DNA of 64,000 bases from a virus (taxonomy: Duplodnaviria > Caudoviricetes), in IMG/VR virus record IMGVR_UViG_3300038345_000118, positions 22,149 through 86,148 of that record; one strand, 5' to 3'. A program made the translations under genes and the position numbers. This document shows, in pieces, positions 12,777 to 18,625 of this stretch (the first letter of the stretch is position 1; each line of letters starts with the position of its first letter). A model generated the notes under the pieces. It saw only the letters and a program-made list of their open reading frames with translations. It ran no database searches and was not told the DNA's origin.

Positions 12777-12956
12777 TTAAAAATCAAATGCTGTTTCGAT
12801 AAATTTCTCTAAGCGGTCTTTCCGCCATTTGCAACCAAGATCACGGGCGAAGGCAAATAGTATGCGCTTCACTTGCGCCTCCGTATAGGTACGAGCGTCC
12901 CGCAGTTCCTGAACTTTAGGACGCATTTGTAGAATCATTGCTTTTGTTTCTGCCAT
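12777..12956 (-). CDS. small hypothetical protein (59 aa, not in ORF track)
   Basis: MAETKAMILQMRPK...FIETAFDF, fills the gap between co-oriented genes. Confidence 0.65.
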   Translation of the reverse strand: MAETKAMILQMRPKVQELRDARTYTEAQVKRILFAFARDLGCKWRKDRLEKFIETAFDF

Positions 12957-12976
12957 AGGAATATGGTTTTATAGAT

Positions 12977-13198
12977 TTAACATGGATAACACCCCATAGC
13001 CAGAGGCCAACCTTCAGGACCATAGCCCCCATAGCAATAGAGCTGTTCCCATACTTCATAGGTACTTTTGTAATAATCACCACCACGCTGCTGCTTAGAA
13101 TAAAGCGTAGGGATAGGCATACCATGTGCCATACAATAGTCGCTCACGGCCTTTGGCTCGCGAACTTCAAAATAGACTTCTGATTTCTTTGTTGTCAT
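12977..13198 (-). CDS. hypothetical protein
   Basis: MTTKKSEVYFEV..., preceded by GGAGGACAAAATTATG. Confidence 0.7.
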   Translation of the reverse strand: MTTKKSEVYFEVREPKAVSDYCMAHGMPIPTLYSKQQRGGDYYKSTYEVWEQLYCYGGYGPEGWPLAMGCYPC

Positions 13199-13227
13199 AA
13201 TTTTGTCCTCCATATTTTAGTGAATAA

Positions 13228-14262
13228 TAGTAGAAGAGGGCGGACTCGAACCGCCTGATGCCCACGTGGGGCGTCCAGCCCTGACTCTCTCGGCTATCGT
13301 ATGCGTGTGCTGCGTCGGCCACGCCTGACACCTGGTGTCCTGCGTTTGGATTCGTTGCCCATAGGCCATATTGTCAGCTCACGCAAATAGCGGGAAAAGT
13401 CGTTTACACTCTCCTCCTCCGTTTTATCTTCAAAATCTCGGATACACTTTACTTTAATCTGTCCCCCTCGTTTGTGTCCGACCCGAAACAGGCCGTTAGA
13501 TAACACGCTCATGCCGCTTGAAAACCGGCTGCACATGAAACGAGTACAGCACACTCACTGGCCACTCGCGCTCTACCCACCCAGGGGGCCTGGCGCTCAT
13601 AGCCCTTCGTGCGAAGGACAAGATATTGAAGTTCGTCGCGGTTTTTTCTTCCTGAGCCCCGCCCCTATGTGTGCATAGGTATTGTCCGCCGCTTGCAAAG
13701 TTTTATGCGGATAGGATAGAACCCCACCCGGCGAGACTCACTTTCGGACCCGGCTGCATCGTCCGCCTCGTGAGCGCCTATAAAAACGCCTTCGACTTCC
13801 TGCTCTCGCCTTCCTTGGATAGTCTTTAATTATAACCCTTCTGCCTTCTCGCCTGGGGCGGTTTTGCTTGAGTTCGTCACCTCCTTGCAACCTACCCCCT
13901 GCGCCCTCCACCGGGAGGGCATAGACAGTTCGTTATCTCGTGCGCCGAAACGCCTACCTAACTATCCGGTCCCAGATCGCTAACTATCCCGGGGCCTTGC
14001 GGCCTGCCTTTAGCTCTCTGCCCCTTTGCATTTAAGAGAGTGGGGGTACACCCGAGGTTTTCCGGCTATCCTTCTGCCTGCCTTTGCTTTTACTCCCTGG
14101 CCTTGGGAGGATCTTTTGCTCCCCCTTGCCCTGAAAACCGGGCTTTATAGTGGAGGATCCGGGGGCCTTGAAAACCGGGCCGATCCGGGCAAAATGTTTT
14201 TTAGTGGGGGCAGGGGGTATCGATCCCCCTTGCGCTCCTTGCGCCCCCTGGCCTTGCGGCCG
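13228..14262 (-). ncRNA. candidate large structured ncRNA ending in a tRNA-like T-arm module
   Basis: ~1 kb without a credible ORF; many hairpins (GGCC-GCAA-GGCC twice, AGGGGG/CCCCCT, GCCCTCC/GGAGGGC, CCTATG/CATAGG); 3' GGCGG-TTCGAGT-CCGCC. Confidence 0.5.
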
Positions 14263-14922
14263 TTATGCTGCAAACAATAGGGCGGCGGCCTCTGCCTCTG
14301 TTATTGTGCCGGCCTCCACTTGTTTTTTAAGATCCTGGGCTTTCTTTGCAAACTCCTTGGCCTTGTCTGCATAGGCCTTGCGCTCCTGACTCTTGGCCTT
14401 GCGCTCTGCCTTGCGCTCTGCCTTGCGCTCTGCCTTCTCTTTTGCCTTGCGCTCCTTGTCTTGCTCCTTGTCGATAGCTGCGGCGTATTTTTCAACAAGC
14501 CCCAGACGGGCGGCGGCAGCATCTATAACGGAGTTATCACTCCAACAACTTGCAAGCGTACCAATATAATATGTACCTGCAAAGTGGATCAAAACGTGAT
14601 CGGCGTCAGGTGTAAAACTTGGATCAAGATAGAAAGCCGTAGTATCAGTTACGGCAACAAGAGACGTAACCGGGCGGCCGTTAAAAGCATATATAGAACT
14701 CCACCAAAAACCGGCGCCGTCAACGAAGGCCGCATTTAAACGGGAATAAAGATCTTTAATGTTTTCGTTACTGTAACCTTCTACGCCCTTGGCCTCCTTG
14801 TCTCTGCCCTGGGCTACCTTATTCAGGTGCCGGAAAATGTAACCGGGGTTACTGTTGATCACCTTGTTTTCATTCTTTGCACCCTTTTTAACCTGGGCAG
14901 TGGTTTTTACTTGCTTATTCAT
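14263..14922 (-). CDS. first gene of the leftward operon; hypothetical with KAER coiled-coil repeats, C-terminal -FAA
   Basis: 219 aa, directly downstream of a TAACTTTG promoter. Confidence 0.85.
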   Translation of the reverse strand: MNKQVKTTAQVKKGAKNENKVINSNPGYIFRHLNKVAQGRDKEAKGVEGYSNENIKDLYSRLNAAFVDGAGFWWSSIYAFNGRPVTSLVAVTDTTAFYLDPSFTPDADHVLIHFAGTYYIGTLASCWSDNSVIDAAAARLGLVEKYAAAIDKEQDKERKAKEKAERKAERKAERKAKSQERKAYADKAKEFAKKAQDLKKQVEAGTITEAEAAALLFAA

Positions 14923-15036: not shown

Positions 15037-15211
15037 TTTTCCGATTTCTTGACAAAATATACAAAAGTATCTTTATTTTGTAATCTCAGAGTTTGCAAAA
15101 TGATACCTTAACCACTATATTCCTACCTGAAAACCGCAAACAAAGGCCAACACTATTTGACTTTAATAATGTACGCGCGAGAACTGGTGTTGCCTGGTGT
15201 TCACGCTCCAT

Positions 15212-15393
15212 CACCACCCACACCACCAGAAGCACACCACCAGAAGCACACCACCACCACACCACCCACACCACACCACCACACCACACCACCACACCAC
15301 ACCACACCACACCACCACACCACCACCCACACCACCACCACACCACACCAAAGCATATTTACAGCCGCCGCCGGACGCCCACACCCACCCCAC
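15212..15393. repeat. C1-3A (CACCAC/CACAC) low-complexity tract
   Basis: Nearly pure C/A run, including a tandem CACCACCAGAAGCA. Confidence 0.95.
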
Positions 15394-18412: not shown

Positions 18413-18625
18413 CGCTATGAATTTTGACAAACAAAAACTGCACTACGGGCTGTCAAGGTTCATAGCGGTGAGACCTTTGGGGCTGTTATCCAGTACCCCA
18501 CCCGGTGCAGTCGTATTTTTTGAGGATAATCCTCGTTCATTTTCGGGCACAAAAAATGCCGCTTGTTCGGCGGCTCTTTTTCTTCTTCGTGCCACCGCTA
18601 TGAATTTTTTGACATGGCAAAGATA
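18413..18625 (-). promoter_or_regulatory. promoter plus C4/CI-like antisense-type structured leader
   Basis: TATCTTTG at 18618-18625; two direct copies of TGTCAAAA(AA)TTCATAGCG and one complementary copy CACCGCTATGAACCTTGACA. Confidence 0.55.

Follow-up and report, generated by a model that had tools for sequence, protein, structure and literature searches.

What is encoded by the ~1 kb of an early viral operon in which no gene can be recognized? The question is raised by a 64,000-nt stretch of DNA (the window), which is part of the 86-kb IMG/VR virus record IMGVR_UViG_3300038345_000118 (Duplodnaviria; Caudoviricetes). On the minus strand of the window, a 219-codon open reading frame (ORF; 14922-14263) is followed by ~1,050 nt without a credible ORF and then by the next gene, with its ATG at 13198. 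The gene-free stretch has a G+C content of 0.56-0.58, above that of its surroundings, and its minus strand is purine-rich. An earlier reading of this DNA (the original prediction) had assigned positions 13228-14262 to a candidate giant phage non-coding RNA (ncRNA). By comparing related loci, we found a conserved, non-coding and strongly covarying RNA of ~1 kb at this place in the early operon, which supports that assignment. As placed from the sequence, the RNA would comprise 1,018 nt (13231-14248), from the first base of a 5' tRNA-like element, TLS1, to the discriminator base of a 3' tRNA-like element, TLS2; the boundaries originally proposed lie within ~15 nt of these ends. All features of the RNA are on the minus strand, and coordinates without a contig name are those of the window.

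We consider it probable, although well short of certain, that this RNA represents a new family of large structured ncRNAs, which forms the second unit of an early anti-restriction operon and is processed via its tRNA mimics, so that its core is released. As in other large ornate ncRNAs, the molecule is longer than 400 nt, non-coding and conserved, and it contains many covarying helices and junctions. Its kind, the large ornate RNA of mobile elements, is known, and no catalogued family matches it. New are the presence of a tRNA mimic at either end, the location in an operon with anti-restriction genes and the fixed protein partner encoded directly upstream.

Non-coding character and secondary structure

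The hairpins and repeats listed in the original prediction were all recovered on the minus strand of 13228-14262. They include GGCC-GCAA-GGCC (14261-14250 and 14004-13993), GCCCTCC-CGGT-GGAGGGC (13920-13903), CCTATG-CACA-CATAGG (near 13679-13664), CCTTCG-CA-CGAAGG (near 13616-13603) and CTCAC...GAAA-GTGAG (near 13774-13736), as well as three copies of the CGGTTTTCA motif (14177-14169, 14140-14132 and 13527-13519) and two copies of GGATAGTTAG (13989-13980 and 13967-13958). The first of the two GGCC-GCAA-GGCC hairpins (14250-14261) lies in the spacer that separates TLS1 from the upstream stop codon, and it is probably outside the conserved RNA, because the aligned relatives lack it. In the whole window CGGTTTTCA occurs four times, against 0.75 copies expected. 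The fourth copy (15128-15136, minus strand) is located outside the RNA, upstream of a promoter-like box, and was not found in the equivalent region of the relatives.

The stretch is non-coding, as had been proposed. All minus-strand ORFs in 13228-14262 are at most 86 codons long and the stretch has no codon periodicity. No ORF is common to the aligned relatives of the RNA, in which single-base insertions and deletions break all frames. Variable columns are distributed over the three codon phases as 92/103/98 in the RNA versus 101/77/167 in the neighboring gene, where the third position is in excess. The RNA stretch is also more conserved than the neighboring gene. It is 77-82% conserved in related contigs, and between the window and the other members of its own sequence type (type A, see below) the RNA is 80-82% identical, compared with 62-68% nucleotide identity in the adjacent gene.

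The secondary structure was predicted with RNAalifold from an alignment of nine sequences, and it is full of covarying helices. Among the 191 predicted pairs, 61 are compensatory, that is, pairing is kept through changes on both sides. After shuffling of the 3' partners 33 +/- 3.4 compensatory pairs remained, and none of 500 shuffles reached 61; when the partners were slid by 1-3 columns, only 7-12 compensatory pairs were left and the fraction of paired cells fell from 96.9% to 40-46%. Covariation among homologues, the check named together with the original prediction, is thus present well above the level of shuffles.

The 5' junction domain (14114-14194) consists of an outer helix, P2, around two hairpins, HL1 and HL2 (loops at 14177-14169 and 14140-14132), both of which carry conserved CGGUUUUCA(A) loops. 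P2 is the clearest helix of the RNA and was found in six rewritten forms (UUUUG/CAAAA, CCCUA/UAGGG, UCCUA/UAGGA, CUCAU/AUGAG, UUCUG/CAGAA and UAUUUGC/GCAAAUA). The core RNA between the tRNA-like elements (13416-14204, as delimited by the positions of TLS1 and TLS2) is predicted to be released by processing. It has invariant blocks, for example the GCCCUCC-CGGU-GGAGGGC hairpin mentioned above, and a long-range helix GGAUAGU/ACUAUCC (about 13969-13961 with 13823-13813) that covaries. A third hairpin, HL3, has the CGGUUUUCA loop (13519-13527) on a covarying stem, in which five of seven pairs are compensatory (columns 929-935 with 954-960). The HL3 loop motif is common to types A-D.

Two purine tracts, GGAAAACC and GAAAAAACCG (14188-14176 and 13640-13628, respectively), are complementary to the conserved GGUUUUC/CGGUUUU hairpin loops, and similar tracts, without covariation, are present in types B, C and D. 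Judging by this complementarity, the loops and tracts could form a tertiary or an intermolecular contact.

The RNA family and its tRNA-like ends

On the evidence of sequence comparison, the window RNA belongs to a new family, with RNAs of 0.6-1.1 kb, on mobile elements of Bacteroidales-type hosts. About 12 distinct relatives were identified in metagenome contigs and classified into five sequence types (A-E). An nhmmer profile search gave full-length matches in contigs L010-L019 and in L027, a JGI contig that was recovered via an invariant 22-mer. Type A includes the window, L020, L010, L027, L012, L013 and L019, with mutual identities of 77-92%. Type B (L015, L017 and L018) is ~58% identical to type A, and the two types have in common the first ~250 columns, the central core and the third hairpin. 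In distant relatives the family was traced by the gap behind the gene of the upstream (partner) protein. This gap contains a 0.6 kb RNA in L036 and L037 (type C), an RNA of 0.8 kb in L039-L041 (type D) and the truncated start of an RNA in L035 (type E); one further contig, known without its DNA, has a gap of 766 nt. The covariance model R1, which describes the 5' domain, matches type C with 40 bits (E about 1e-9), and the 3' element and several motifs of types A and B recur in types C and D.

The association with the partner gene is strict. The partner protein has 14 close homologues in metagenome assemblies, and a profile search of 1.8 billion representative proteins returned only 12 relatives. 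The RNA directly follows the partner gene in all 14 contigs with enough sequence, where the encoded homologues have ~200-235 residues. Within L010-L019, every contig that is long enough has a gene-free gap of 1.05-1.15 kb directly after this gene, and a gap of 0.6-1.1 kb persists down to homologues of 31-38% identity. In L010 and L018, the partner genes are 87% identical (89% for the proteins) and the RNAs, which belong to types A and B, only 58%. Similar genes are thus found next to RNAs that have some segments in common and differ in the rest, which indicates that modules of the RNA are exchanged in the course of evolution. Three findings go further than the original prediction: the tRNA-like element at either end, the obligate association with the partner protein, and the occurrence outside this virus, which extends to one contig with PcfJ/PcfK-like genes.

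Outside these contigs, the RNA had no BLAST match among cultured phages and plasmids, and no other member was detected in IMG/VR in scans with the flanking proteins, two window-specific and two family-wide patterns. Six IMG/VR pattern matches were rejected as collagen-like Gly-X-Y coding repeats, and genome-contig matches to a 19-mer (L028-L034) were rejected as family members by nhmmer. Full-text literature searches returned no description of such an RNA.

Both ends of the RNA combine a 7-bp acceptor with a 5-bp T stem and a 7-nt T loop, and in both this arrangement is accompanied by covariation. TLS1 (14205-14248) is a minihelix that starts 14 nt past the upstream stop codon. It is composed of the acceptor GGGGGCG/UGCCCCC, a 12-nt linker, a stem-loop GGGGG AUCGAUA CCCCC and an unpaired A, after which the sequence continues with CUA. 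This fold is the minimum free energy (MFE) structure (z -2.4), and its pairs 1-72 (G-C/A-U) and 6-67 (C-G/U-A/G-C) covary. TLS1 is the only such element in the 64 kb, where 0.23 are expected. A minihelix of the TLS1 kind is present in all five types, to which types D and E, as judged by eye, add one small hairpin.

TLS2 (13231-13415) consists of an acceptor and a T arm, with an insert of ~153 nt in type A. In this type the 5' acceptor strand AGGAGAG (13415-13409) is separated by 153 nt from the T arm GGCGG UUCGAGU CCGCC (13255-13239), which is followed by the 3' acceptor strand CUCUUCU (13238-13232), an unpaired A (13231) and CUA. The acceptor covaries between types (AGGAGAG/CUCUUCU in A, AGGAGUG/CACUUCU in C and CGGAGUG/CGCUCUG in D), and the T stem covaries as well. 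Types A and C have the pair G3-U70; type D has G-C at 3-70 and G-U at 2-71. In types C and D only 40 nt, which form two hairpins and no insert, lie between the acceptor strand and the T arm, and the MFE structure is a 72-nt four-way cloverleaf (z -3.2 and -2.4, respectively). Besides the T arm, it has one arm of 6 bp, whose loop AUCACGGACA contains GG, and another of 5-6 bp that ends in a tetraloop. There is no 7-nt anticodon loop, since the loop of the second hairpin has 4 nt. TLS1 and TLS2 are followed by CAA, CUA or CAG and not by an encoded CCA, which a real tRNA-Met of L036 also lacks.

ARAGORN detected no tRNA or transfer-messenger RNA (tmRNA) in the window or in eight related loci, except for this tRNA-Met elsewhere in L036, and neither TLS1 nor TLS2 was matched by RF00005. 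The tmRNA models RF00023, RF01850, RF01851 and RF04321 reached at best 18.9, 14.8, 14.6 and 11.2 bits, compared with gathering scores of 47-84, and in L036 the tmRNA alignment to TLS2 is end to end and weak (14.6 bits). A mini-tmRNA was considered for TLS2 and rejected, as it has no conserved frame and all frames of the type A insert are broken by 1-nt insertions or deletions. TLS2 is thus neither a tRNA nor a tmRNA, because it has no anticodon loop and no tag frame.

Processing model and alternative explanations

The original prediction could place the RNA in no known family, and this stands after a search of Rfam 15, which gave nothing in the RNA region at the gathering score, be it for ROOL, GOLLD, introns, ribozymes or tmRNA. 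ROOL, GOLLD, OLE, HEARO, raiA, group I and II introns and RNase P RNA had no match at E up to 10 in 12900-14600, nor at E up to 1 in five related loci. A permissive scan returned only sub-threshold pieces of tmRNA models (14229-14111 and 13255-13203) and noise.

We propose that the RNA is transcribed right after the orphan partner protein in the early anti-restriction operon, and that TLS1 and TLS2 would serve as cutting signals for RNase P and RNase Z. The 5' side of each mimic would be cleaved by RNase P (before 14248 and 13415), and the 3' side, after the unpaired A residues at 14205 and 13231, would be generated by RNase Z or by trimming. In this way the mRNA upstream would be severed from the one downstream, setting free a core of ~790 nt together with two small tRNA-like RNAs, by a logic analogous to mitochondrial 'tRNA punctuation' and to MALAT1/mascRNA. 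More speculatively, the core may act in establishment or counter-defence shortly after the element enters the cell, probably in a ribonucleoprotein (RNP) with the upstream protein. Action with this protein is suggested by the strict gene order, and a role at entry or in counter-defence by the anti-restriction genes of the operon.

Several observations weigh against this proposal. The RNAalifold structure was derived from the same sequences that were used to score it, and for this reason the 5' domain was also drawn by hand and realigned with a covariance model; in this drawing 16 of 33 pairs are compensatory, compared with 8.0 +/- 1.5 in shuffles and 4-8 after sliding. The number of independent lineages is only five or six. 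Since the folding energy of single sequences is unexceptional (z -0.3 to -1.3), the case rests on comparative evidence and not on hairpin density. The antisense alignment folds almost as well as the sense one; as neither energies nor the antisense fold discriminate, the strand was assigned from the operon direction and from three features of the RNA, its T loops, its GNRA loops (GCAA and GAAA) and its invariant G-U pairs. In TLS1 the T loop reads AUCGAUA or AUCGUUA, which deviates from the UUCRA consensus, and in type B no 7-bp partner was found for the TLS2 acceptor. Processing would explain the ends but not the core, because 1 kb of conserved structure far exceeds what processing signals need, and it is gene order alone that points to a possible role of the partner protein.

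Other explanations start from the same features. The tRNA-like parts might themselves be the business end of the RNA, either in counter-defence, as a decoy, bait or sponge for tRNA-binding or tRNA-cleaving host enzymes, or as an alanine acceptor, with the core as a scaffold. This reading, which overlaps the proposed one and is compatible with processing, appears rather unlikely to us. A decoy would suit an operon shared with ArdC, ArdA, MutS-I and methylase/helicase genes, and a TLS2 cloverleaf that keeps the elbow (a GG-containing D-like loop and the T loop) and no anticodon; related ArdC-operon phages also bear real tRNAs (Gln, Phe) at a similar place. However, there is no anticodon loop to bait an anticodon nuclease, nor a tie to any particular defence system, and conservation is highest in the core and not in the tRNA-like elements. 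Likewise, the G3-U70 pair of types A and C would favor an alanine acceptor, but in type D the G-U pair has moved to 2-71. The core could instead assemble into an RNA-only particle similar to those of ROOL and GOLLD, multimerising by loop-loop and A-minor contacts with no need for a protein. The size, the GNRA loops, the location on a mobile element and the association with tRNA fit these RNAs (10.1101/2024.12.08.627333), and three to four hairpins have an identical loop, with complementary purine tracts (GAAAACC, AAAACCG) in types A, B and C and a variant in D. We regard such a particle as unlikely, given that no similarity to the ROOL or GOLLD models was detected even at E up to 10, that the complementary loops and tracts lack covariation and, in the L012 group, no longer match at one site, and that the strict linkage to a protein gene is unlike ROOL.

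A purely cis-acting device of the operon mRNA, either a processing or stability module or a regulator of downstream translation, would produce no trans-acting RNA. The location between cistrons, with no promoter or terminator of its own and with the end of TLS2 32 nt before the next start codon, agrees with this possibility. It is nevertheless quite unlikely, since the downstream gene varies while the RNA and the upstream gene stay joined, and a covarying multi-domain structure of 0.6-1.1 kb is far beyond known leaders. The two remaining possibilities are poorly supported. One is an element that acts as DNA, be it an origin, an attachment (att) site with fragments of tRNA genes, or a site in a conjugative leading region that serves as single-strand promoter or for initiation. 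The context resembles a leading region (ArdA/ArdC, and PcfJ/PcfK in L036), and integrative elements often bear 3' fragments of tRNAs. Against these similarities, there is no long hairpin but many short helices and junctions, with the longest inverted repeats (11-14 nt) scattered; both acceptor strands are present and covary, for which an att fragment has no need; the T loops, GNRA loops and invariant G-U pairs are on the transcribed strand; and the element of the window is a tailed virus with a Rep3 initiator encoded elsewhere. A DNA-level function is therefore very unlikely. The other is a hidden protein-coding gene, recoded, frameshifted or made of short ORFs, which we find scarcely credible. 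Gene callers do place a 127-residue ORF inside the type B RNA, but this ORF was rejected: its start is within an invariant hairpin of the RNA, it is closed in type A and shorter in L018, and it is not conserved. The RNA region also has no codon periodicity, and 1-nt insertions and deletions break its frames.

The ncRNA family that we favor, with its tRNA mimics and putative processing, can be compared with several known systems. ROOL and GOLLD are likewise ~0.6-1 kb RNAs with a multi-domain, covarying and GNRA-rich structure, are found on mobile elements in association with tRNAs, and have no known function. They differ in that the window RNA does not match their Rfam models, and in that they occur in Lactobacillales, rumen or marine contexts, whereas the window RNA is of Bacteroidales type. 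Moreover, ROOL and GOLLD have neighboring tRNA genes, whereas the tRNA mimics of the window RNA are built into its two ends, its place is within an operon of protein-coding genes, and one protein gene always accompanies it. For ROOL, no protein partner was reported (10.1101/2024.12.08.627333). In MALAT1/mascRNA, MEN-beta and mitochondrial tRNA punctuation, the end of a long RNA is also set by a tRNA-like cloverleaf with a shortened anticodon arm, and MALAT1/mascRNA is made by RNase P and RNase Z at this cloverleaf (PMC4919922). The bacterial RNase P matures tmRNA, OLE RNA and phage regulatory RNAs (PMC4919922). The MALAT1-type systems are eukaryotic or organellar, whereas the window RNA has two mimics, is on a bacterial mobile element and is only predicted to be cleaved.

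The resemblance to tmRNA is in the acceptor with G3-U70 (types A and C) and the T arm, with the remaining tRNA body replaced; unlike tmRNA, the family scores far below the gathering thresholds, with no tag frame and, in types C and D, no insert. Among phage RNAs, the C4 RNAs of P1 and P7 and the CI RNA of P4 are immunity ncRNAs of ~77 nt with an antisense function; they are matured by RNase P and cut from longer transcripts at tRNA-like features. The window RNA is tenfold larger and has no evident target. In phage tRNA islands, such as that of T4 with its species 1 and 2, tRNA-shaped as well as other stable RNAs arise from a single transcript through tRNA-processing enzymes. Relatives with the ArdC operon resemble such islands in having real tRNAs in the equivalent operon, but the window RNA contains no functional tRNA and its non-tRNA part dominates.

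It can be speculated, as a tentative and rather doubtful extension, that the RNA and its partner form a dedicated RNP, which Bacteroidales mobile elements would make first on cell entry. Its RNA would be freed by host tRNA-processing enzymes, and via the mimics it would disarm or distract a host defence or take over an enzyme that handles tRNAs, such as RNase P/Z, the CCA-adding enzyme or alanyl-tRNA synthetase. If true, it would be a large RNA-based counter-defence machine of a kind not yet described. To our knowledge, conserved structure of nearly 1 kb is found in only few RNA classes from bacteria or phages, and those of phages have no known function. The present family offers three handles that are missing in the others: a fixed protein partner, which makes a pull-down possible, a fixed place at the head of an operon with anti-restriction genes, which hints at time and purpose, and tRNA mimics at both ends, which give exact and testable cleavage sites. 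Should the proposed processing be true, the family would provide a bacterial long ncRNA that is freed from a polycistronic transcript by flanking tRNA mimics.

Partner protein, operon and host element

The partner gene (14263-14922, minus strand), directly upstream of the RNA, encodes the orphan 219-residue protein. No Pfam or PHROG family was assigned to it, and tblastn against cultured phages and plasmids gave no match. Its AlphaFold2 model has a small alpha/beta domain and one 75-residue helix in the ERK-rich part; according to the model, the ERKA-repeat segment may be a single alpha-helix spacer. Foldseek searches with the partner protein against PDB and BFVD found nothing at E <= 0.001, the ESM Atlas gave no usable match, and VIA-align matched only the long helix. 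The C-terminus of the protein is -AA or -VA in all relatives (alignment A3).

The first gene downstream of the RNA (12977-13198, minus strand) encodes 73 residues and starts 32 nt past TLS2, as seen from the ORF list and an alignment of the start region. Among related loci the gene 3' of the RNA varies and the upstream partner is constant. Further downstream, the operon continues on the same strand with small ORFs and with genes for an ArdC-like anti-restriction protein, MutS-I and a methylase/SNF2 giant. Some relatives carry ArdA and MutS-I, and others (L036) PcfJ/PcfK. The window also encodes a Rep3 initiator, which has plasmid homologues exclusively in Bacteroidales, and a tape-measure protein; together they suggest that the element is a Bacteroidales phage-plasmid.

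A candidate -7 promoter box of the Bacteroides type, TAACTTTG, was identified by its match to the consensus at 14977-14970 (minus strand), ~45 nt 5' of the ATG of the partner gene. The box is part of an 18-mer, GAAAAAGATATAACTTTG, of which identical minus-strand copies are located at 14987-14970 and 16303-16286. They precede two minus-strand genes, the partner gene and a 174-residue ORF (16230-15706), and from its sequence the repeated 18-mer looks like a repeated early promoter. No minus-strand terminator was found between the promoter-like box and the genes past the RNA. Further upstream, ~290-430 nt from the partner gene, is a tract of ~140 nt built of TG/TGG units (15211-15351, minus strand). 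Seven independent relative contigs (among L010-L019) all start 235-266 nt upstream of the partner gene, and this shared start point suggests a repeat tract or a physical genome end.

Of the RNAs catalogued in Rfam, the window contains only c4-2, at 18434-18512 (minus strand; 45.7 bits, gathering score 41), and this RNA fits a P1-like antisense immunity module. ArdC-operon viruses of IMG/VR that are related to the window do not have the ncRNA described here and contain single real tRNA genes on the operon strand. These are tRNA-Gln (UUG) and a tRNA-Phe with the unusual anticodon AAA, at L004:838-909 and L008:527-600, and each of them is followed by ACAA, in the manner of the tRNA mimics described here. 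In the type C contig L036, the partner gene is preceded at a distance of ~4 kb by the tRNA-Met (L036:3-77) and followed by PcfK/PcfJ-like genes (L036:7418-8687). In appearance, this contig is closer to an integrated conjugative element than to a phage.

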